In this document: in pieces, positions 17,876-61,469 of the stretch | Numbering within the stretch: the stretch's first letter is position 1 | Layout of the letters: each line of letters opens with the position of its first letter | Source of the DNA: Octopus vulgaris | Taxonomy: Eukaryota | Assembly (NCBI GenBank): GCA_951406725.2 | Contig: OX597822.1 | Coordinates: 107,074,001-107,138,000, forward strand | Direction: 5' to 3' | DNA length: 64,000 nt | Program-made: the position numbers and the translations under genes | The notes under the pieces: generated by a model | What the model was told of the DNA's origin: nothing | Database searches by the model: none | The model's input: only the letters and a program-made list of their open reading frames with translations

Positions 17876-18477
17876 AGAGAGGACAAACAAGGACAGACAA
17901 ACGGATTAAGTTGATTATATCGACCCCAGTGCGTAACTGGTACTTATTTAATCGACTCCGAAAGAATAAAAGGCAAAGTCGCCCTCGGCGGAATTTGAAC
18001 TGTGAACGTAGCGGCAAACGAAATAGCTATTTCTTTACTACCCACAAACAAGGACAGACAAACGGATTAGGTCGATTATATCGACCCCAGTGCGTAACTG
18101 GTACTTATTTAATCGACTCCGAAAGAATAAAAGGCAAAGTCGCCCTCGGCGGAATTTGAACTGTGAACGTAGCGGCAAACGAAATAGCTATTTCTTTACA
18201 ACCCACAAGGGGCTAAACACAGAGAGGACAAACAAGGACAGACAAACAGATTAAGTCGATTATATCGACCCCAGTGCGTAACTGGTACTTATTTAATCGA
18301 CTCCGAAAGAATGAAAGGCAAAGTCGACCTCGGCGGAATTTGAACTGTGAACGTAGCGGCAAACGAAATAGCTATTTCTTTACTACCCACAAGGGGCTAA
18401 ACACAGAGAGGACAAACAAGGACAGACAAACGGATTAAGTCGATTATATCAACCCCAGTGCGTAACTGGTACTTAAT
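17869..18477 (-). mobile_element. SINE-B 4-unit array
   Basis: Junctions gaaatag|ctatttc at 18026/27, 18187/88 and 18371/72. Confidence 0.93.
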
Positions 18478-20959: not shown

Positions 20960-21260
20960 GTAGTATTATTGACCGAGGTTGCCGTGGTCTTTTCTGTAGG
21001 CTTTTCTTTTCATGGATAAACCTTATCTGCTTCCTCCTTTACACTTACATCATGACATTTCTGTGATACACGATCCCTATTGATCGTTTGTTTCTTCTTT
21101 TCTTTTTTTTCTGTTTTTTTTTCTTCTTTCCCTTTTACGATCCCTTTTGATCGAAAACCTACCCCACTTTATTTTTTTTCTCTCTCCCCCGAAAAGAAAC
21201 GCTCTACTTTGTAATCTCTCCCGTCTGTGTACAGCCCTGTGTGGCTAATAAAGAAACATA
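20960..21260 (+). mobile_element. Probable 3' UTR end of another Tx1/L1-like element, inserted in (ATCT)n
   Basis: T-rich segment ending cccgtctgtgtacagccctgtgtggctaataaagaaa, similar to the SINE-B and Tx1 termini; ATCT repeats flank it. Confidence 0.5.
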
Positions 21261-21262
21261 TC

Positions 21263-21493
21263 TATTTCTTTACTACCCACAAGGGGCTAAACACAGAGAA
21301 GACAAACAAGCACAGACAAACGGATTAAGTCGATTAGATCGACCCCAGTGCGTAACTGGTATTTAATTTATCGACCCCGAAAGGATGAAAGGCAAAGTCA
21401 ACCTCGGCGGAATTTGAACTCAGAACCTAATGGCAGACGAAATACGGCTACGCATTTCGCCCGACGTGCTAACGATTCTGCCAGCTCGCCGCC
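21263..21493 (-). mobile_element. SINE-B monomer with ~20-bp TSD
   Basis: TSD taataaagaaacatatctat at 21246-21265 and 21494-21513. Confidence 0.93.
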
Positions 21494-21604
21494 TAATAAA
21501 GAAACATATCTATCTATCTATCCATCCATCAATATACCCACCCACCCGAAATGCCGCTAAACACTATGCCTGGCTTGTCAAATATTCAGTCGGCTCGCGA
21601 ACGT

Positions 21605-24519: not shown

Positions 24520-25022
<503 letters not shown>

Positions 25023-25333: not shown

Positions 25334-28300
25334 TTAATAGCACCACCTGGCGAAGTCTTTCAGTTCAGGATTTGGGCACCAAGGCCCATTCGAGCAGAGA
25401 GTTATTGTTTGCGGAGACATATCCGGGTGTGGATGGTTTGTCCGGTACTGTTTGAAGGAATTTGTCCAAAGACTTCTTGAATTTTGTGTGGTCAGTTTCT
25501 TTTTTTTGACGTGTCCTGGTGTAATGTTGAAGAGAGCGGGTCCAATTGAGGTGAAATAGTTGTGCCGTATTGTCGTTATGTGATGCGATTTAGATTTTTG
25601 TTGTGGACGGATGGCACGTGGTCCAAGTCTTGGATGCATTTTGAAGGTGATGCCAACATCATTCGGACAGTGCTGATGGAATATTTTCCACATCATACAG
25701 ATAATGTAGCGTTCACGGCGTCGTTGGAGTGAATACAATTTCAGCTTCTCTAGTCTACCCCAGTAGTCAAGGTCTGACATGCCATCTATCTTTTTTGTGA
25801 TTGACCTTTGGGGAGCTTCAATTCTCATAATATTTTGTTTTGTGTAGGGAGACCACAGTGGACAGCAGTATTCAAGGTGGGGTCGGGCAAAAGTGGAGAA
25901 GAGAAGGATAATAGCGTGGGAATCTCTCGACTGGAAGGTTCTGAGAATCCAGGAACACATTCTGCGGGCCATGTCAACTTTGCTGCTTATATGTGTAGCC
26001 CAGCTTATGTTGTTGTCCACTGTTACTCCCAGGTCTCTGATGTTGTTGGATGCCATGAGAATTTCTCCAGAAGGAAGAGAGTATGGGAGTTTCAGAGCGT
26101 CCTCCCTTCCAAAGTGGATCAGTTCGAATTTGTCTTCATTTAGCAACATGTTATTCTTTTCCGCCCATTGGACAACAGCTAGTAGGTCTGACTGAAGGTT
26201 TATTCGGTCATCCACGCCATTGATGACCTTCTGGAGCTTGGAATCATCAGCGAAGGTTCTGATGTTGCTGTGTTTGATGGTGTCAGTAATATCATTTATG
26301 TAGATGATGAAGAGAAGTGGGCCCAACACAGTGCCTTGTGGGACACCACTGCTGACTTTGGCTGGGCTGGATTTGACTCCTTCGACTACAACATGTTGGG
26401 TTCTGTTAGAGAGGAAGCACTTGATCCATTGCAGCAGCTTTCCAGTGACACCAATATTGGACAGCTTTCTCAGAAGGATCTTATGATCAACCCTGTCAAA
26501 GGCCTTGCTGAAATCAAGGTAGATGACATCAGTGTTGGAACCCTCTCCCAAGGCTCTCAAAATGTCATCAAAATGATGCAGTAGCTGCGTCAGGCAATCT
26601 CTCCCATTACGGAATCCATGCTGGTTGGGGTTCAGCATATTATGACTCTCAAGGAAGTGAGTCATACGCGATCTCAGCACCCTCTCAAATACCTTGATGA
26701 TATGAGAGGTGAGTGAGATTGGACGGTAATTCACGGCAAGCGATTTGTTTCCTTTTTTGAAAACTGGGATAACAGACTGGGATAGAAGGTCTTCTGGTAT
26801 ATATCCAGCATCCAATGAGTTCCGCCACAGATTGGCTAGAGGGAGTGCAAGTTGGTTTTGACACATCTTCAAGACACAAGCAGGGAACCTATCGGGACCT
26901 ACTGCTGAATTATGCTTCATTTCCTTTATTGCTGCTAAGACATCAGGAGCGCCAAATGTTATGTCCGATAAAGTGTATTGGGGAGTAACATCACTGATAC
27001 AGCCCAGATCAGTCATATCAGGATTGTTGAAAACAGAGCAATATTGTTTCTGCAATATTTCTCCCATGGTTTTGGCATTGTCTTGAAGAATACCATTTTC
27101 ATCAATCAGAGGGCCAACAGTAGAACCAGTGACTCTGTGTTTTTTTGCAAATGAAAAGAACACTTTGGGATTGAGTTTGATCTTCTCAATGGCCCAGGCC
27201 TCTTCAGCTCTTCGCTGACTATTGATGATAGACATCATGTTGTTTTGGAGTTTATGTTTTTTAATCTCTAGCGACGAGATGGGAGTCAGGTTGGTGTGTT
27301 GCTGTTGACAGTATTTCAGCATGTTGATCTTTTTGTTGATTCTTTTAATTTTCCTTATGAGAGATTTTCTATTTCTAGGGATTCGACACTTAGATTTGTT
27401 TGCAGATCTTAATGGGGTGTGTCTTGCACATATGTTCGTGATGGTGTCTACAAGTGACTGCCAGGACTTTTTGATGTTAGTGGGTGTGTATGTGTGCGTG
27501 AAGGACCAATCGACTTGTGCAAGATCATTATTGATCGCTTCCCAGTTTGCATTGTGGAAATCCATAGTGTCAAATGGATGAACAGGAGGGATGACATTTG
27601 TTTTGCATTTTGGCCAGTGAAATCTCAGATCACAGAGAACCATGTCATGGTCGGAGAGTAGGGTTTTCTCCACTGCAATATTGTGGATAGTATCAGTGTG
27701 ATTGCTGAAAATTAAGTCTAAGACGTTTTTGTGACATCTCGTTGGTTCGAGTACCAGTTGGGACAAGAAGAAGTCATCCATGAAGTCAAGAAGCGATTCC
27801 ACTGCCTCCCTGTCAGGGGTTGAGAGAGAAGAACCTGGCGGCAGACTGTTTGTAGACCAGTCAACCCCGGGAAGGTTGAAATCTCCCATCATTAAAATGT
27901 TGTCAGGTTGACACTGCTGAATGAAACACTTTATGCTGTTGAGGCATTCCTTGAAGCATGGTAGGGGCGTTTGGGGTGGTCTGTAGAGCCCAACTACTGT
28001 TAAGTTGTTGGTTTGACTGAATACAGCGACTGCTTCGCAGTATCCATTCGAAAATATGTTCATGGCTTCTGTTGAGAATGAATCATGGACATAAATGGCA
28101 GTCCCACCCTTTCTTCTGCCAACACGATCAGCACGAATGGTTTTGAAATTTTTAACTTTCACCTCGGCTTCCAAGTGGAGGTCACTAAGATGGGTTTCAG
28201 TGAGGACGAAGAAAGGGATGTGGTTTGGATGGGCCTCGACCCAGTCCTCCAGGAATCTTATCTTCCATTTTTGTGTATTGGTGGAAGGGCTGATGCCTTG

Positions 28301-28384
28301 GGCATTAAGCAGAAATGTTGAGGCGAGAGTGGATGGTTTTAATTGTTTTGGTGATTTGTTTATTTGATTGCTTTTTAATGGCAT
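25334..28384 (-). CDS. LINE ORF2p: APE endonuclease plus reverse transcriptase
   Basis: LTETHL, YRPP, MGDFN and SDH (APE); NYRPISLTS, YLDFSKAFDRVDH, SGVPQGTVLGPLLF and FADD (RT). Confidence 0.97.
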   Translation of the reverse strand: MPLKSNQINKSPKQLKPSTLASTFLLNAQGISPSTNTQKWKIRFLEDWVEAHPNHIPFFVLTETHLSDLHLEAEVKVKNFKTIRADRVGRRKGGTAIYVHDSFSTEAMNIFSNGYCEAVAVFSQTNNLTVVGLYRPPQTPLPCFKECLNSIKCFIQQCQPDNILMMGDFNLPGVDWSTNSLPPGSSLSTPDREAVESLLDFMDDFFLSQLVLEPTRCHKNVLDLIFSNHTDTIHNIAVEKTLLSDHDMVLCDLRFHWPKCKTNVIPPVHPFDTMDFHNANWEAINNDLAQVDWSFTHTYTPTNIKKSWQSLVDTITNICARHTPLRSANKSKCRIPRNRKSLIRKIKRINKKINMLKYCQQQHTNLTPISSLEIKKHKLQNNMMSIINSQRRAEEAWAIEKIKLNPKVFFSFAKKHRVTGSTVGPLIDENGILQDNAKTMGEILQKQYCSVFNNPDMTDLGCISDVTPQYTLSDITFGAPDVLAAIKEMKHNSAVGPDRFPACVLKMCQNQLALPLANLWRNSLDAGYIPEDLLSQSVIPVFKKGNKSLAVNYRPISLTSHIIKVFERVLRSRMTHFLESHNMLNPNQHGFRNGRDCLTQLLHHFDDILRALGEGSNTDVIYLDFSKAFDRVDHKILLRKLSNIGVTGKLLQWIKCFLSNRTQHVVVEGVKSSPAKVSSGVPQGTVLGPLLFIIYINDITDTIKHSNIRTFADDSKLQKVINGVDDRINLQSDLLAVVQWAEKNNMLLNEDKFELIHFGREDALKLPYSLPSGEILMASNNIRDLGVTVDNNISWATHISSKVDMARRMCSWILRTFQSRDSHAIILLFSTFARPHLEYCCPLWSPYTKQNIMRIEAPQRSITKKIDGMSDLDYWGRLEKLKLYSLQRRRERYIICMMWKIFHQHCPNDVGITFKMHPRLGPRAIRPQQKSKSHHITTIRHNYFTSIGPALFNITPGHVKKKKLTTQNSRSLWTNSFKQYRTNHPHPDMSPQTITLCSNGPWCPNPELKDFARWCY

Positions 28385-29315
28385 GTGTAGTGGGGTAATA
28401 GTGGTGGATGGCGGTGGGTGATAGCTCGGATGTTTTTTTCCAGTTCTTTTGCTAGATTCATTATAGCTAAAAAAGAGGAAGAAGAGGTGGTTTCCTGTCT
28501 AGGGAACCGCAGGTGACTGTGGCCGCGGCTATTTTTATGTGAGTGGTTATCTTTAAATGTCCGACGAGTCCCCGGGAGATGGGTAAAGGGGCAATCCCTG
28601 TGCAAACACAATCTGTCTCGCTGGGAATAGCGGCAGATTTGGGGATTCCTTGTTTGAGATATTGGTGGTTGTGGTGATGTTGTATTATGGTGGTTGCTGT
28701 TGTAGTTTGTGGGGATAGAGCGTTTTGTTCCAGGTAAATGGGTGAATTTGCAGTCTCTATCAGTGCACAGTCTATGGCGAAGAGAATATCGGCAAATGAT
28801 GGGGTTTCGAGTGGGTGTGTAGGTGCGTGTATGTGTGTGAGCTGTGAAAGGTGTAGATGATAGTTTGAAGTTTTGGCGACCTTTGTGACCTGTAGGAGGT
28901 AAATTCCTTGAGATAGCATTAGTAGTAGTAGCTGTAGTAGTAGTAGTAGTAGTAGGTAGAAGAGATGTTGACGGTGGTAATGATTGAGGAGGTCGATTCC
29001 AAGACAAAGATGTTTGTCGATATATAGTGGGAGTAGTACTAGTAGTAGTAAGCAGAGGAGATGGTGTTGACAATGATGATGATTGAGCTGCTGGGGCAGT
29101 GAAAGGAAGGGGTGGTGCTTCCTGCTGTGTGACCCTGATAACTGGGGGGTCAATCGTTTCATTTAGCAAATCAGCCATTGTAGATGAATCAAGGAGTGGT
29201 TCATCCTGTTGTTGTTGTTGAGGTTGTTGTTGTTGCCTCTGAGGTTGTTGCTGCTGAAGTTGTTGTTGTTGCTGTAACTGTTGTTGTTGTTGTTGTTGCC
29301 GCTGAGTTTGTTGTT
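28375..29315 (-). CDS. LINE ORF1p with poly-Q and two CCCH zinc fingers (N-terminus truncated)
   Basis: [19 protein letters not shown] and [19 protein letters not shown]; frame stays open upstream of Met 29178 as Q-rich sequence; overlaps ORF2 by 10 bp. Confidence 0.85.
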
Positions 29316-29342
29316 GTTATATATATATATATATTGTTGTTG

Positions 29343-31878: not shown

Positions 31879-32470
31879 GGCGGCGAGCTGGCAGAATCGT
31901 TTACACGCCGGGTGAAATGCGTAGCCGTCTTTCGTCTGTCGTTACGTTCTGAGTTCAAATTCCGCCGAGGTCGACTTTGCCTTTTATATCCTTTCGGGGT
32001 CGATTAAATAAGTACCAGTTACGCACTGGGGTCGATATAATCGACTTAATCCTTTGTCTGTCCCTGTTTGTCCTCTCTGTGTTTAGCCCCTTGTGGGTAG
32101 TAAAGAAATAGAAATAGGTATTTCGTCTGCCGTTACGTTCCGAGGTCGACTTTACTTTTCATCCTTTTGGGGCCGATAAATTAAGTACCAGTTACGCACT
32201 GGGGTCGATATAATCGACTTAATCCGTTTGTCTGTCCTTGTTTGTCTCCTTTGTGTTTAGCCCCTTGTGGGTAGTAAAGAAATAGGTATTTCGTCTGTCG
32301 CTATGTTCTGAGTTCAAATTCCGCCGAGGTCGACTTTGCCTTTTATATCCTTTCGGGGTCGATTAAATAAGTACCAGTTACGCACTGGGGTCGATATAAT
32401 TGACTTAACCCGTTTGTCTGTCCTTGTTTGCCTCCTTTGTGTTTAGCCCCTTGTGGGTAGTAAAGAAATA
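31879..32470 (+). mobile_element. SINE-B 3-unit array with one TSD
   Basis: Junctions gaaatag|gtatttcgtctg at 32117/18 and 32285/86; TSD tatgtaaatgta flanks the whole array. Confidence 0.93.
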
Positions 32471-32499
32471 TATATGTAAATGTACACATCCTGCGAGCA

Positions 32500-38594: not shown

Positions 38595-39270
38595 GTATAT
38601 ATATATGTATATATATATATATATGTATATACATATATATATATATGTACATACACACACATATATACATATGTATATATGTACGTGTTGATATATATAT
38701 ATATGCATATATGTGTTTATGTGCGTATAAGTGGATGTATGTATCTATATATACATATATACTTGCATATATAAATATACATACATATACATATATACAA
38801 GCATATATATATATATATATGCATGTATATATGTATATACATGCACACAGGAGTGGCTGTGTGGTAAGTAGCTTGCTAACCTCACTGACAGAAGAGTGAC
38901 TTTGCCTACCGTACTACGGTTTGGACGGGTTTTCTTCCCGGTAAGAGTTTTGCTGTGTTGTTAATTGTTGAATTCCTACTACTGAAAATTTGCCTTTAAA
39001 CGTTGCTGAACTGTCTTGTTCTCCGGTTTTACCGGGAAATAATTGAATAATTTCTTACCGTTGAACTGTTAGCCACTGTGGCTTTTTATTTACGTGACTA
39101 TATATAGTCCTGCCAGACTATTTTCGTGCCCCTCCCCCGAATGGGGGTGGGAATTGGAATTTTTGAACTGCTTTTTTGAACTACTTTGGAAGAAAAACTT
39201 TCTATAGGTTTCCCAGTTTTGTGGGAAACCAATACTCGTAATTTTTGTGTTGTCTAATTTCAACAGAATA

Positions 39271-40675
39271 ATGTCTTTTGAAATTATTCACGAAAGTAGT
39301 GCTCTTGAGGAGAGCAATGTTAAAAAATTTTCTGAGGTAGCCGCAGTGGCTACCGAGAGCATTGACATCGATGTCAACCAGCTCGTCGAGCTATTTAAAA
39401 GAATGCAAGAGGAGGGTGGTGATGTTAAAATATCACTCTCCGCCAGTATCGTGGAGACCGAGAAGCGGACCGTAGTGTTTAAAACTTTCTGTCCATAAAG
39501 CAGAAGGTTCAAACACTTTGAAAAAAGCTCTATCGAGAAATGCCTGTCCCCGATTTGGAAGGACATCGTGTACGTCGCCAGGGGACGGGCATATGGCACT
39601 GTGGATGTCCGCTTCTCGGGGAAGAAATGGCCCGCGGGCATTCTGTGAACCCCCTAAAAACCAAGGAGGTGGTACTTTTTCCAAGCTATAGGGGACGCAG
39701 GACGTCCCGGGTCAGGATTGTAGAAGCCCCGCCGGAAGTAGATCCGGTAGAGGTAGTGGCCGCCCTATTATATAAAAGGGCGGACAAAATAAAAATGCTA
39801 GAAGTAACATGCTCTACCCCTCGATTTTGGCTCGGGTGTAACATTAATATATTAATTCAAGGAACAGCGGAAGACCTGCAGCACCTTCCTGAGAGGGTGC
39901 TCGTGGGCGAGAACGTAGCCCTCAGGGTACAGGTCGAAGGCCGAAAACTCACCTGTTACGCCTGCGGCAAAAGGGCCACATTCGTGTAGACTGTCCAGAC
40001 AAGCAAAAGAAACCGCAGACACCAGGCCCCTCAGATAATAAAAAAGTCCCTACCCTTGCAAACACACCTACCCCTACAAAAGCAAAAAAAATCCCACTCC
40101 TGCTGTTACGGTGCCAACCCCAAAACAGACTGAAGAAAAAACCCAGCCCTCGCACTCACAAACCCCTACACTATTAAAACCTCTCACCCCCCTAAAAACT
40201 GCGGCGCCTATCGAACAAACTATTGCTACCCCAGACGATACCATGGAGGTATCAGAGGGGGGATTTACACCAGTTCGTAAAAGAATTCGTGCAGCATCCC
40301 CGTCCACATCCCCTACAAAAAATAATAAAAACAAAGACACACCACAGACACGAAAAAAAAAATCCCGCTCAACTGGCCCAGAAAAAGAAGACAAAAAAAA
40401 AAAATAAACTCATATTAATTGAATTCGACACACAAGAAAAATACATAAACGATATTGTGGTTCAGCATCAGTCAGCAAGACTGTACAACAAATACAAAGA
40501 TCGAAATAGACACGCGTGGATTGCGGAAACAACGTTCAAACAATTAAAAGACAGACACCCAAACGCCATCCGGCATATCGCGAACTTGCCGGACTATCTG
40601 AAGAAAGAGGAGAAAGAAGGGGCCCACAAACGTGTGGTGAGGTCGGCCCCCACCTCTCCAACGAAATGTAAGTAG
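39271..40675 (+). pseudogene. Tx1 ORF1 (gag-like, CCHC knuckle), frameshifted
   Basis: Consecutive ORF fragments; CYACGK/GHIRVDC knuckle spans a frameshift near 39970; K/P/T-rich C-terminus. Confidence 0.8.
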
Positions 40676-40692
40676 AACTTTTACTTTTTGTA

Positions 40693-43600
40693 ATGGCTTC
40701 GCTTAACCTTGGTTGTTTAAATGTGCGTGGTCTGAGTTCGAAGTGGAAGCAGGCTTGTTTCCTCGACGACCTCAGATCACATGATATACATGTGATGGTT
40801 GCTACAGAGACCAAGCTGGACAGCCTACAAACCTTCTCGCCTCTCCTGAATGGCTACGAGAAAATCATGTCTCCTGGCCAGACCGGATGGCGAGGGGGCG
40901 TAGTGGTACTGATCCGTAAAGACTTGGCTCTACAGACAAGTACAGTCTATGTAGACCCAGAAGGTGGGCTGGTCGTCCTTGATGTGACATACAGCAGTAA
41001 GGCCTTCAGGTTGATCGGACTCTATGCACCTTGTGCTAGAGGTTTCCAAACTGATTTTTATCGGCGCCTAGAGGGCTTTCTCGTAACGTCGAAGACTTTA
41101 GTGATATTAGGGGACTTTAATGCTATCGTTGACGTACACATCGATAGCGTTGGCTCGATCTATAGGAAAGTGAACTCACGTCTCGTGGATCTGCTTAAGC
41201 GGTTTCAGCTGGCAGATCGTTACAGACTTGACCATCCGAACGTCCCAGAGTGGACCTGGATGAGTGGCGACGGAAGGTTCAAGTCTTATCTAGACAGGAT
41301 AGTGATAAGAACTAGAGATAAGTCTAGTTTTAGTTGTCCACAGCTCGTCCAGGTGCCCTATACTGACCATAGAATGGTCACGTGTAGACTGGACATAGAT
41401 AGCACACTTAAGATAGGAACCGGCTACTGGAAGCTGAACAAGTCTATTTTGACACGCGAGGCATACCGTAGCCGGATTAAGGTGTTAGTGCAGAGGGCGT
41501 TAACCGGAGCCGTGGTTAATAACCGGTGGTGGTTCACCCTCAAAAGAGCCATTCGATTCGAGTCCATTAGATTTAGTAAACAACTAAGACTAGATAGGGC
41601 TAGAATAGAAGGGCAACTAGTTAAGAACTTAGAGGAGACGTTGAGGTTGGGCTCTGCATCTCACATTTTAGCGGCGAGAACGGCATTAGACCGTCACCTC
41701 AAAACCAAACATGAGGGATGTAGAGTCCGGGCTAAAGTACGAGCATTGGGCCGTGAGGGAATTAATGTTGCCGGATGGGCCCGTACGATAGAAACACAGC
41801 GTGGAAACGATGCCACAATTGGGTCTCTTGTTGATGAAAACGTATGCACGATCAAGAAGCGGGACGAGATGTGAGGCACTTCACAAGCACTTCGCCGAGT
41901 TGTTCGGGAGGTGCGGGACGCTGGATCATGGTGAGGCCCTTAGGGACTTCCTGTCTGGTGGCCCGCGCCTCTCGACACGAGAGGCTGAGTGCTGTGAGGG
42001 GCCAATCACAGCCGAGGAAGTAATCGAGGTGTTGGGCAAGTGCCAGACTTGTTCGGGCACCTGCTGGCTAGCGTCTACGCCAACTGGCGGCAGAATGGGA
42101 GAATTCCCAAGTCTGCGAACCGGGGGGCGGTGACGTTGATCAGGAAGGACCCGAACAAGGGGGACGAGATAGGGAACTTCAGGCCCATAACTCTGTTAAA
42201 CACAGAGTTAAAGATTCTGGCCAAGGTGCTAGCAAAAAGGTTGGCGCGGGTCGTGGACAAACTTGTCGGGGAAGCGCAAACGTGCGCTATCCCCGGCAGA
42301 ACGATCCACGACAATCTCCACCTTATACGCTACTCCTTAGAGAGGGTGGGGAAGCTTTCTGGCGCAGGGGGAGCACTGGTACATTTAGACCAGTCCAAAG
42401 CATTTGATAGGGTCGACCATCGGTACCTGGCGGCGGTCCTCGGAGAGGCTGGCCTAGGCCCGACCTTTCGAGGTTGGATCGCTGCTTTGTATAGCGACAT
42501 CGAGTCTGTAGTCAAGGTGAACGGTTCCTTTTCGAAGCCGTTCAGGATCGAGCGTTCAGTTCGTCAAGGGTGTCCCCTGTCCTCGCTCCTATACGTATTG
42601 GCTCTTGAGCCTTTGCTGCGGAAGTTGGAGGCACTAGGGGGCGCGCCGCATGATCTATGGTGTGGAAGAGGAGCTACGGCGTATGCGGATGACACCTCCA
42701 TCATCGTGGCAGACGAAGGCTAGCTTCCAGTGGTGGAAGAGGCCATCAAAAGCTACGAGGCGGTGGCAGGAGCAAAGGTTGACAAGGACAAGTCGGTCGG
42801 TTTGCAACTCGGCACCTGGAGAGGCAAGCCGATGCCGTCCAATAACGTCGTAGGGCGTTGGACGGAAGGTCCTGTTAAGCTGCTCGGAGCCTGGTTCGGG
42901 TCAGACCTCCAGATTGAGAAAAATTGGAGTGAGGTGGCCAACAAGGTGACCGCTCTAACCCAGACCTGGTCTGGGCGGGCGTTATCCCTGCTAGGGAAGG
43001 CGGAGGTGGTGCAGATGTTTATAGCATCAGTAATCACCTACCGTCTGACCGTGGTGCCTTGCCTCGGTTTGTGGCTGAACAAGTTGGAGAGAATCCTTTT
43101 CCGATTTTTGTGGAAAGGAGGAAAGCCACTTGTAAAGCGCTCTGTCTGCTGCCAGAAACCGCTAAAGGGTGGGCTAGGGATGCCTTGGCTGAGGATGCGA
43201 AAACTCGCGTTAAGGTTGAGGCACCTCTGGCTTTACCTGGATGGAGAGCAGGTGTGGTCGCCGCACGTCCGGTTCTACCTTCCCCAGTTAACATCCCTAA
43301 CGGACATCGGTGCATGGATCAAGCGGAGACCTAAACTGAGTGAATGGCATTTGGAGTGCCGTCAGGCGCTCCAGCTACTATCTCGGGTGGGCAACGCCGG
43401 CAACAGGAGTTCCACCACGGAATTCTATAGCGGGTTAGTGGAGATTAAGTCCGAAGACGCCTTGGGGGAGACCCTGGGCTACGATGAAAATCAGTTGGTC
43501 AACCTGTTCCGGAGGACGTTCGGGCCGGGGTATCTGGATAATTACCAGAAATCCCTGGCCTGGCAGTGTTTCCGTGCGGCTTTACCTGTTCGCGACAAGC

Positions 43601-44034
43601 TGTCAAGGCACGGTAGTGCCGTCTCGCCGACATGCCCGCGATGTGAGCAGGATAGGGAGACCGTCTTGCACGCATTCGTGGAGTGTCCGGAGTTATCGGG
43701 ACTCATAGCTTTTGTTGAACAACTGTTGTCAGTGATGGGAAGAGTACAGCTATCAGCTGAGTCTATCATCGAGATTGTGCCGCCCCCTTTCCTTATCAGG
43801 GAAAGAAAGGCTTGTTTTTTCTGTGTAGTAGCCATACTGAAAGAAACAGTATGGAAGACGCGTACGAAAGGTATAGTGACAGGCACCTTTGTCTCCGACC
43901 AGGGGTTGATTAACTATTTTAGTTACCACCTCAGTAGCAAAATCAGGCTGGAGAAGAGGTGTCTGTCACGAGATATGTTTGTCAAAAGATTGAAGCCTGT
44001 GGCATACAAGATGGGTATGTTTGGCACCAGGTAA
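40693..44034 (+). pseudogene. Tx1 ORF2 (APE, RT and C-terminal zinc knuckle), disrupted
   Basis: LNVRGL, GDFN, YTDH, GYWKLN; FRPITLLN, DQSKAFDRV, RQGCPLS, YADD; CPRC..ETVLHAFVEC; breaks at ~41870, ~42040 and a stop at 42721. Confidence 0.95.
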
Positions 44035-44262
44035 GTGTGACCGGATCAGAAAGTAAAGGTTCTACCCGGATGGCAGGGTGTCCGTCTTTCGACATGATCA
44101 TTAATATTTTTAAACATTGCCTTCGTAAAATTCATTGTTTATAATCTTATCCGTAATTTCATTCGAAAATTGTAACTGTGTTAAGCTACTTCACCCTTTA
44201 TATTTGTCTGTCCGTGTTTGTCCCGTCTTTGTAAATGCCTAAATGGCAAATTATATGAAATA

Positions 44263-44645
44263 AAGTAGCTTGCTAACCAACCACATGGTTCCGGGTTCAG
44301 TCCCACTGCGTGGCATCTTGGGCAAGTGTCTTCTGCTATAGCCCCGGGCCGACCAATGCCTTGTGAGTGGATTTGGTAGACGGAAACTGAAAGAAGCCTG
44401 TCGTATATATGTATATATAGGTGTGTGTGTGTATGTTTGTGTGTCTGTGTTTGTCCCCCTAGCATTGCTTGACAACCGATGCTGGTGTGTTTAGTCCCTG
44501 TCACTTAGCGGTTCGGCAAAAGAGACCGATAGAATAAGTACTGGGCTTACAAAGAATAAGTCCTGGGGTCGATTTGCTCGACTAAAGGTGGTGCTCCAGC
44601 ATGGCCGCAGTCAAATGACTGAAACAAGTAAAAGAGTAAAAGAGA
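44263..44645 (+). mobile_element. Remainder of the SINE-A interrupted by Tx1 (its head is at 38849-38881)
   Basis: Joining the two parts reconstitutes a full SINE-A. Confidence 0.93.
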
Positions 44646-48175: not shown

Positions 48176-48596
48176 ATCTGGATGATTCCTTTCCCCTTAC
48201 TCTGTGCGTGCCTGTAGCATCGTTTTTTACTCATTGCCTGCTACGAAGCTTAGTATGTGCACTCATCCGGTATCTCTTGAGTTATCTCTCTCTGTATCTC
48301 TGATTATACTGTGCCCCACCCTCATCTTCATATGATGTAACGTATGGCATAGAAAATCAGTCAACCAGCCAGACGGCTAATGGAGTAACATTTATATCGC
48401 CTATAATTGAATAGAGATAATTAGTTGATAATTGTTAAGTTATACAAGAACAAAAAGAAATCATTACAAGCCACTGTGAGCAGTAAAAGTTATTTATTTA
48501 TAGAAGTAATTTATGAAGTTACTCGTCGCTGTTGTTTGGCTGTTAGATCTACTCCGGCCATAATGAACAAATCTTTTGATAAAATAGATTCCAGTG

Positions 48597-48985
48597 GTGT
48601 AGGAGTGGCTGTGTGGTAAGTAGCTTCCTTACGAACCACATGGTTCCGGGTTCAAGTCTCACTGCGTGGCACGTTGGGCAAGTTTCTTCTACTATAGCCT
48701 CGGGCCGACCAAAGCCTTGTGAGTGAATTTGGTAGACGGAAACTGAAAGAAGCCCGTTGTATATATGTATATATATATGTATGTGTGTATATGTTTGTAT
48801 ATCTGTGTTTGTCCCCCCAACATTGCTTGATAACCGATGGTGGTGTGCTTACGACCCCGTAACTTAGCGGTTCGGTCGAAGAGACCGATAGAATAAGTAC
48901 TAGGCTTACAAAGAATAAGACCTGGGGTCGATTTGCTCGACTAAACGCGGTGCTCCAGCATGACCACATTCAAATGTCTGAATAA
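48597..48985 (+). mobile_element. SINE-A full-length copy
   Basis: Matches 8577-8990. Confidence 0.92.
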
Positions 48986-49195
48986 ATTCATACTTTATCC
49001 CACTCAAAACATATCTTGAGGGCCACATTTTCTAATGTATCATTTTTTAAGACAGTAGTATGTAATGTGCAGAAGATTTGGCTGCTGTTTCTAACTAGTC
49101 ATGTTACGATAAAGACGCTCTGTCTTCAACTATCTCTATCTCGTTGGTTCTCGGTGACATCTAAAGGCAAACAAGAGTTATCAGTGCTATATATA

Positions 49196-49778
49196 TTTCT
49201 TTACTACCTACAAGGGGCTAAACAAGGAAAGACAAAGGTATTAAGTCGATTACATCGACCCCAATGCGTAACTGGTACTTAATTTATCAACCCCGAAAGG
49301 ATGAAAGGCAAAGTCGACCTCGGCGGAATTTGAACTCAGAACGTAACGACAGATGAAATAGCTGTTTCTTTACTACCCACAAGGGGCTAAACACTGAGAG
49401 GACAAACAAGGACAGACAAACGGATTAAGTCGATTATATCAACCCAAGTGCGTAACTGGTACTTATCTAATCGACCCCGAAAGGATGAAAGGCAAAGTCG
49501 ACCTTGGCGAAATTTGAACTCAGAACGTGGCTGCAGACGAAATACCTATTTCTTTATTACCCACAAGGGGCTAAACACAGAGGGGACAAACAAGGACAGA
49601 CATAGGTATTAAGTCGATTATATCGAACCCCAGTGCGTAACTGGTACTTAATTTAATCGACCCCGAAAGGATGACAGGCAAAGTCGACCTTGGCGGAATT
49701 TGAACTCACAATGTAACGCAGACGAAATACCGTAAAGCATTTCGCCCGGCGCGCTAACGTTTCTGCCAGCTCGCCGCC
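49196..49778 (-). mobile_element. SINE-B 3-unit array with TSD
   Basis: Junctions at 49361/62 and 49545/46; TSD tatcagtgctRtata at 49179-49193 and 49781-49795. Confidence 0.93.
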
Positions 49779-51331
49779 TATATCAGTGCTGTATACTCTG
49801 TGCATTCTTCAGTGAAACATTCATCTTTTACCAAGAAAAAATTTTAATAGGAAGTAAAGTATGGTGAAGGAAATTTATTTTTGTAGAAAATGCGACTTCA
49901 CTAATAAAGTAATTGACTTCGTTGTATTTTCGTTTTTAATTGCGAGAGTTGAGTTTCTAATTCCAACAGAAGGGAACGCTGACATCGTTTTAATAGGCCA
50001 ATACGAATATGTCAGTTGCTTTTTTAAGTATGGTACGGTGGTACGATTTACTTCTCTTTCTAATATCTCTAATGGTTTGTGATTATTTTAATGATTCCTG
50101 CCATCCAAGCTGTTCAGATACCATTCATTTTTCTTTCGGTCTGCATCTGGCAATATAACCCGTAGAAATTTATCGATTTGCTATCGATTATTTTTTCTAG
50201 ATTATTTTGTTATTCAATTTTCTGAAACCGCAAATCCTAGAGGGAACTGCAGGCTGTTTTCTAGTTTCGTTTCTATTTCTTTCTTTCTGTTTTTATTGTT
50301 GTTGTTTTTCTTTTTTTGCTTGAAGTTCGTCTTCGTATTACACTAATCAAAACTATGTTTACAGATAGTGTTATTTTGAATGTGTTGTATCAGTTTACAA
50401 ATATCAGGGCTTTGTCTGTATGCTACGAGTATTTACAGAATATCAATGTTTTCATATCTATTTTATCTATATTCCATATAATTGTTATTTTAACCGCGAT
50501 TTATCCGTTTAAGAAACCGGTACATACGAACCGTTTTCACTCAGTATGGTTTGCAGTTTGTATCTTTTGTCTTTGACAAGCTGTATGTAGATAGCTTCTT
50601 TATAACAGACTGCATATTCATCGAGATTCTGCATTGATATCGTATCAATATTTACACACCAGTTACTTCTTTTGATTAGGAACACGGATCTGTTTTCTAA
50701 ATAATTTGTAGTTGATTGTATCGAGCTCAGTATATTAGCATTACGAGCCAACGTAGGATTCTTTATGTGATCGATCAGCGTCAAGAAAACGCAGTTGAAA
50801 CTCCCTCAAATCACACACACCAGATTTAAAAAATTGAAAACACTGGAATTATGATCCTAGATGCTCTACAGAACTGCACTGGATAGTCATGGCTGAAATG
50901 TCTTTTGATTAAAAGTCTGTTTGGTCAGAACCCACCTGGGGAGGGGCTAAGCAACAACTGTTTTTAGTTTTATTGGTGAGAGAAAGATATTAAGCATGAT
51001 ATATTAAACAGCGAATTCGATACCACACGAGAGTTAATTCAATAATCTACGGTGGAGTGAAATACGAACGAAAACAAATTTCGTTCTATGCTATCGATGT
51101 GCAAAATAGAAAAAAATGTTAGACTCTTCTGACAGACGGTTCTATGGCTTGTTGACTTTTCCTCAAAGTAGACGTAAATGGCTTCTTACATAATTAATAG
51201 CTAAGGCTACTTAATTATAAAGCAGTCATAAATGAAACTAAACTGTGGTGGATAGCCTAATTTGTAATATATAAATATATATATATAAATATATGTAATG
51301 CCCCGTGTGTGTATCTGTATGTTTGTACAAA

Positions 51332-60677: not shown

Positions 60678-61068
60678 CCTTTTAGTTTGTTACTAGTATG
60701 TTACACTTTAAGTTTGAACAAGGAAAATGTTGATAGTGACTACGAAATTTCATCTGGATTGCCTTTGTCGTATGTATATGCGAGGTGCATTCCTGAAGAC
60801 ATGAGTGTTTGTTTTTCAGGGAAGGTGGTTAGAATAGTGTGTGTGTATGTGTGTGTGTGTGTGTGTGTCTGTGTATACATATGTACATCTATATACATAC
60901 ATGTGCATATGCATGTATGTATGTATGTATGTATGTATTTATATATTCCTGTTGGGGTTTTATGTATTTCATAATAATTTATTTTTACATATTTCTTTTA
61001 CTTTTAGTTTGGAATAAAGTTTTGCCCACATGCACCAATGTTTCAAGCTGTTCTCAGTTTCACTACCT

Positions 61069-61469
61069 TATTTCTTTATTGCCCACAGGGGGCAACACGC
61101 AGAGGAGACAAACGGACTAGGTCGATTATATTGACCTCAGTGCGTAACTGGTACTTATCGACTCCGAAATGATGAAAGGCAAAGTCGACCTCGGTGGAAT
61201 TTGAACTCAGAACGTAGCGGCAGACGAAATACCTATTTCTTTACTACCCACAAGGGGCTAAACACAGAGAAGACAAACAAGGACAGACAAACGGATTAAG
61301 TCGATTATATCGACCCCAGTGCGTAACTGGTACTTATTTAATCGACCCCGAAAGGATGAAAGGCAAAGTCGACCTCGGCGGAATTTGAACTCAGATTTGA
61401 ACGTAACGGCAGACGAAATACCACTAAGCATTTCGCCCGGCCTGCTAACGTTTCTTCCAGCTCGCCTCC
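61069..61469 (-). mobile_element. SINE-B 2-unit array
   Basis: Junction gaaatac|ctatttc at 61232/33. Confidence 0.92.

Follow-up and report, generated by a model that had tools for sequence, protein, structure and literature searches.

The LINE and its host SINE

We analyzed a 64-kb stretch of Octopus vulgaris DNA, referred to here as the window, in which a LINE of ~5.4 kb lies on the + strand at positions 38882-44262 (to 44264 under an alternative reading of its 3' end). The parts of the LINE and of the SINE that it splits are listed below, each with the evidence for it.

38849..38881, + strand: host SINE-A head, 5' part, with A-box-like motif, ending in the left duplication copy (similarity to intact copies)
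38866..38881, + strand: target-site duplication, left copy, 16 nt or 14 nt (exact repeat)
38882..39270, + strand: LINE 5' UTR (family contigs of three runs start at ~38891)
39271..40675, + strand: ORF1, broken by one stop and several frameshifts (reading frames, family contigs)
40696..44034, + strand: ORF2 with APE endonuclease, RT and zf-RVT (Pfam, frames, relatives)
44035..44262, + strand: LINE 3' UTR (sequence, frames)
44183..44191, + strand: 9-nt reverse complement of the start of the duplication (exact match, with extra pairs)
44203..44262, + strand: tail common to SINE-B and, more weakly, SINE-C, with a pyrimidine-rich core, a predicted short hairpin and a shared terminal motif (alignment)
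44263..44278, + strand: target-site duplication, right copy (exact repeat)
44279..44644, + strand: host SINE-A remainder with B-box-like motif at 44294-44304 (similarity to intact copies)

Repeat comparison identified an exact 16-nt duplication, at 38866-38881 and 44263-44278, which is the only exact repeat of at least 8 nt that starts near the two ends of the LINE. The A residues at 44263-44264 are ambiguous: counted with the duplication they make it 16 nt long, and counted with the LINE tail they leave 14 nt. The flanking segments, 38849-38881 on the left and 44263-44644 on the right, are two parts of one SINE-A. The right flank shares 87-89% identity with the intact SINE-A copies found at 8577, 36315 and 48596, and the left flank matches the head of intact copies and is 94% identical over 32 nt to the copy at 48596. 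The host SINE-A is a young copy, and a microsatellite lies directly to its left.

The promoter-like motifs of SINE-A were located by eye, by match to the box consensus. The duplication begins 1 base past the A-box-like motif (38854-38864), and the B-box-like motif of the host (44294-44304) is now 5.4 kb away from it. The box-like motifs of SINE-A are at tRNA-like spacing. ARAGORN found no tRNA in the whole 64-kb window, Rfam at gathering score gave no match, and the region 48500-50000, which includes an intact SINE-A copy, gave no tRNA match up to E 10. The tRNA origin of SINE-A is therefore a putative one, with the box-like motifs as its basis.

ORF2 matched the Pfam models for APE endonuclease (PF03372, E 2e-12), RT (PF00078, E 3e-24) and zf-RVT (PF13966, E 3e-9). 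It carries a frameshift near 41870 and a stop at 42721-42723, and has lost ~20 codons near 42035 (42030-42045) that are present in full-length relatives. A CCHC-type knuckle in ORF1, near 39954-39995, is split over two adjacent frames (C-x2-C and H-x4-C); a Pfam scan of the three ORF1 pieces gave no match. The element has no LTRs, a very short A-rich end, a separate ORF1 upstream of ORF2, and a target-site duplication. It is a full-length, decayed, recently disabled, multi-copy LINE of the L1/Tx1 group. The initial annotation had described a Tx1-type LINE that splits a SINE-A at the A-box region with a duplication, and the 16-nt repeat, the SINE-A flanks and the APE and RT domains bear this out.

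Assignment to the L1/Tx1 group follows from the APE, RT and C-terminal zinc domains, the two ORFs, the duplication and the A-rich end, all of which are present. A profile of 24 aligned relatives matched human L1 ORF2p with an E value of 1e-120, compared with 1e-38 for R2. A CCHC zinc knuckle in ORF1 is a Tx1 trait, and the narrower, putative Tx1 label rests on traits of this kind; no named Tx1 reference protein was among the matches listed. The named matches were cephalopod hypothetical proteins, and the closest of those listed were from Argonauta hians (67% identity in RT, 57% in the C-terminal part), Octopus sinensis (52%) and Acanthosepion pharaonis (52%). In gapless alignment to human L1, the endonuclease hairpin loop of the LINE has 9 residues. 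The sequence-specific endonucleases of Tx1L and TRAS1 have a loop of 11 residues (PMC1950540). The Tx1L-like loop is thus absent here, but it is a trait of Tx1L and TRAS1 and no requirement for specificity.

One relative of protein P0141, 54% identical to it, was deposited under the name of a bacterial metagenome-assembled genome and is probably host DNA contamination. Within SINE-A, positions 44430-44470 resemble the pyrimidine-rich core of the LINE/SINE-B tail with a weak score, and a second, unrelated module follows. SINE-A may be a composite SINE that has exchanged tails.

Copy number and age of the LINE family

We looked for the family in public sequencing runs and found it, whole or in part, in 20 of the 24 runs listed, which come from 7 studies and carry two organism labels. 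No RNA run was among those listed as containing the family, which says nothing on whether it is expressed. Contigs of four runs were aligned to the LINE, and family contigs had 15-100 times the word depth of diverged relatives (110-128 versus 3-8 in X10, 1144 versus 11-25 in X14, and 402 versus 4-10 in X16). Word depth is a rough guide to copy number and not copy number itself, and these ratios suggest a family of roughly tens of copies. Relatives at 85-90%, from sister families, are plentiful. The copy in the window differed from four high-depth X10 contigs at 22 of 1611 letters (~1.4%), plus 5 gaps, suggesting that it is young. Depth at the 5' end was ~65-80% of that at the 3' end in X14 and X16, which suggests that most family copies are near full length, and in three runs the family contigs branch ~9 nt inside the 5' end. 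An extra base at 38872, with raised depth at that position, may stem from SINE-only contigs and was left out of the analysis.

The 64-kb window holds no second copy of the family, and protein-based scans for related loci found none in the metagenome, genome or viral contigs scanned. Among the contig rows listed for the four runs there were no terminal flanks of other family copies.

The window also contains other elements. A second LINE of another clade, at 25337-29316 on the - strand, has an unbroken 1053-codon frame with APE (PF14529/PF03372) and RT (PF00078) domains, preceded by a frame that contains two Cys/His repeats. TA-rich microsatellites flank this LINE, which may have inserted recently and still be intact. 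Copies of yet another family of tRNA-like SINEs are present at 24975, 34903, 53030, 56090 and 62830; these have A- and B-box-like motifs and in many cases lie within TA microsatellites.

The SINE-B tail and a complement to the landing site

SINE-B and the LINE share a tail of ~60 nt. The core is identical at 27 of 30 positions, a score reached by none of 5000 shuffles, and both tails end in a predicted short hairpin whose arms differ but pair. The link between LINE and SINE-B that the initial annotation had drawn from their 3' junctions is therefore real and stronger than claimed. We searched the window for the tail motif and obtained 20 hits, of which two (9109, not a SINE-B, and 21256, a SINE-C) were dropped to leave 18. 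Ten of these 18 tails adjoin one fixed position in the head of SINE-B itself, suggesting that machinery which reads the shared tail is able to favor a particular site within the head of a SINE. None of the 18 adjoins the SINE-A site. Counted from the A-box-like motif, the insertion point follows after 1 nt in SINE-A and after ~27 nt in SINE-B. As the two sites differ, the LINE that carries SINE-B probably belongs to a sister family within the clade, one with another target site.

To judge how the inner copies arose, we compared 13 SINE-B units. Identity was 88-95% within arrays and 84-97% between arrays; units of one array are thus no more alike than units of different arrays, which fits repeated insertion at one SINE-B site. 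The array at 17883-18475, whose units are 97% alike, looks like a local duplication. At their outer ends, SINE-B elements lie in varied, often TA-rich DNA; duplications of 10-20 nt accompany four of the eight outer ends, and another end is within a TA run. The initial annotation had also suggested that LINE and SINE-B share a preference for sites before RTA. By eye, 7 of 8 outer SINE-B ends fit this, against a background of 8.1%, but the preference is loose, the terminal TA of the SINE-B tail itself blurs the junctions, and the LINE agrees with it under the 14-nt reading alone, whereas the duplication originally quoted was that of the 16-nt reading.

SINE-B forms head-to-tail arrays at 5402-5817, 7499-7857, 17883-18475, 31880-32474, 49190-49778 and 61065-61469. 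All inner units begin at the same head position and there is no second full head, an arrangement that fits self-insertion with homologous 5' joining. The last six bases of the SINE-B tail are complementary to those that directly follow the inner junction. At 21205-21506 an inverted SINE-B with an 18-20 nt duplication lies inside the tail of a SINE-C, which has a related hairpin tail.

The 3' UTR of the LINE contains a complement to its own landing site. Positions 44183-44191, read as their reverse complement, are identical to 38866-38874, the nine bases with which the duplication begins, and the match stops precisely at the duplication's left edge. The segment is internal, ~70 nt before the 3' end of the LINE, and antisense to the top strand, and it occurs once on that strand in the window. 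The pairing can be extended by one G-U pair and by three more pairs past a one-base bulge.

We estimated how often such a match would arise by chance, using window sizes of our own choice. A match of at least 9 nt, anywhere in the 26-nt target, occurred in 32 of 20000 dinucleotide shuffles and for 225 of 9002 pseudo-targets in the window; restricted to within 2 nt of a pseudo-nick, it occurred in 907 of 117056 cases in the window. The chance is therefore 0.2-2.5%, depending on the null. The true target was matched by none of 22 other LINE stretches and by 7 of 512 window stretches, five of which we mapped to SINE-A heads read backwards. Energy tests were not significant, as 240 of 2000 and 411 of 2000 shuffled UTRs paired equally well. 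Among windows taken from two intact SINE-A copies, the site ranked 46 of 720 and 42 of 728 by duplex energy.

Of 9 other SINE-A heads, 2 have these nine target bases without change, and both belong to the three copies most like the host. A high-depth contig over 43965-44218 has 5 differences from the LINE copy, 4 of them listed outside the 9-nt segment; it follows that the family has the segment with at most one change. By this deduction the complement would be a trait of the family and not private to one copy.

Site choice and comparison with known systems

We think it probable, from this one insertion, that the LINE family prefers the exact site in the SINE-A head at which this copy lies. 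From established LINE biology we infer that the APE domain cut the bottom strand at the duplication's left edge, that reverse transcription started from the released 3' end with the RNA tail as template, and that a second nick 14-16 nt away produced the duplication. Under the 16-nt reading the first nick falls at a T-T/A step, and the two terminal T residues of the primer could pair with the final A residues of the LINE RNA. Such a step resembles the junction preferred by the L1 endonuclease (PMC1950540).

The UTR segment reads the same as the nine terminal bases of the priming strand and could thus pair with the displaced top strand. Alternatively, it could pair within the transcript, with SINE sequence reached by read-through; this fold-back helix had a predicted probability of ~0.9-1.0 in folds ending at 44300, but of 0.11 or 0 with longer context. 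A second, 8-pair helix at 44174-44181 reached a predicted probability of at most 0.35. It is conceivable, although we hold this only tentatively, that the segment is a short guide through which the RNA helps set target choice, and that a change of its nine bases could reprogram this choice. The read-through stem would then exchange partners with the nicked DNA duplex, so that the guide pairs with the top strand and the read-through bases pair with the primer.

Could the position of the LINE be due to chance? A loosely specific endonuclease may have cut a short T/A-type motif in an abundant SINE, with the 9-nt complement a coincidence. SINE-A makes up 4502 of the 58617 non-element bases of the window (7.7%), so that insertion within SINE-A, taken alone, is weak evidence, and this case was chosen because it lies in a SINE. 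Only one insertion of the family was seen, its endonuclease loop has the L1 length, the energies of the UTR pairing are unremarkable against shuffles, and the outer SINE-B ends lie in varied DNA. Chance nevertheless has to account for two coincidences, namely where in the head the LINE lies and that a perfect complement is anchored at the nick, the latter at the frequency estimated above, and we regard it as unlikely.

A broader specificity, in which promoter-bound factors or a common structure would direct the family to tRNA-like RNA polymerase III promoter heads in general, appears quite improbable. The SINE-A and SINE-B sites both lie between A-box-like and B-box-like motifs, with sense orientation, but relative to the A-box-like motif they are ~26 nt apart and they have only three letters in common. 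This difference in position makes general targeting of tRNA heads unlikely; moreover, the UTR complement fits SINE-A only, and no insertion of the LINE family was seen in another head. Of the original proposal that the family targets tRNA-like SINE heads, a preference for the SINE-A site thus stands as likely, from one insertion, while the extension to heads as a class is weak. Least probable is that one ancient SINE-A insertion multiplied as a composite, by segmental duplication or co-transposition, so that a shared flank would not mean targeting: a predominance of near-full-length copies is unusual for a LINE and would suit this, but the branching of family contigs just inside the 5' end points to varied 5' ends, and the left flank is plain microsatellite.

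If the preference for the SINE-A site holds, the usual dependence is reversed, in that a SINE serves the LINE as landing pad and has its promoter disabled by the parting of its boxes; repeat annotations of cephalopods would then miss nested, site-specific structure. Should the UTR segment help in site choice, it would be a naturally occurring example of an APE-type LINE whose targeting is assisted by RNA, with relevance to tools for site-directed gene insertion.

Many families of the Tx1 clade prefer a target, including other transposons: Tx1L inserts in Tx1D of Xenopus, Tx1-Mar in Mariner-N4_AMi, Tx1-8_Crp and Tx1-4_AMi in LTR elements, and Tx1-9_AMi in Harbinger (PMC4494074). In that study a family counts as target-specific when >20% of its flanks are in one sequence type, and SINEU is described as a passenger SINE of Tx1 families (PMC4494074). 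Like these transposon-targeting LINEs, the octopus LINE is of the APE type, has two ORFs and a ~16-nt duplication, and lies inside another mobile element; as with SINEU, there is a SINE partner that shares its tail or target. Unlike them, it is hosted by a SINE head and not by a DNA or LTR transposon, and its UTR has a target-complementary segment of a kind that the available text of PMC4494074 does not mention. Specificity in that study was demonstrated with hundreds of flanks, whereas the octopus LINE is known from one insertion.

We also compared the LINE with its nearest counterparts among SINE-LINE pairs. As in stringent pairs, SINE-B and the LINE share a tail with a predicted hairpin, and only 3 SINEs with L1-clade tails are reported among >800 L1-clade LINEs (PMC3747384). 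Unlike a pair with a common target, SINE-B uses other sites than the LINE copy. CoeSINEs were considered as cephalopod SINEs and rejected, as they are coelacanth SINEs (PMC5786205), and the available text of that paper mentions neither octopus nor Tx1. The O. vulgaris annotation paper reports 13 recent L1-Tx1 families, and its main text contains neither the word "target" nor the word "nested" (PMC13282606). The open-access literature searched yielded neither a LINE described as targeting a SINE nor a target-complementary internal UTR segment.

Dewa targets the spacers of tRNA arrays. The family Keno targets U2 (PMC4494074). Like both, the octopus LINE would use a multicopy sequence of small-RNA type as a safe landing site; unlike both, it would land in a mobile element derived from a small RNA gene, at a site inside the head. 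With R2 and human L1 it would share nick-primed cDNA synthesis (PMC6895275, PMC1950540). Pairing of RNA or cDNA with target DNA is discussed for these two elements at the very ends of the RNA, in the text of both papers as available, while the complementary segment of the octopus LINE is internal and antisense to the top strand. Tx1 families that target transposons are thus already known, and a SINE as the likely target and the complement in the UTR are likely what this locus adds to them.
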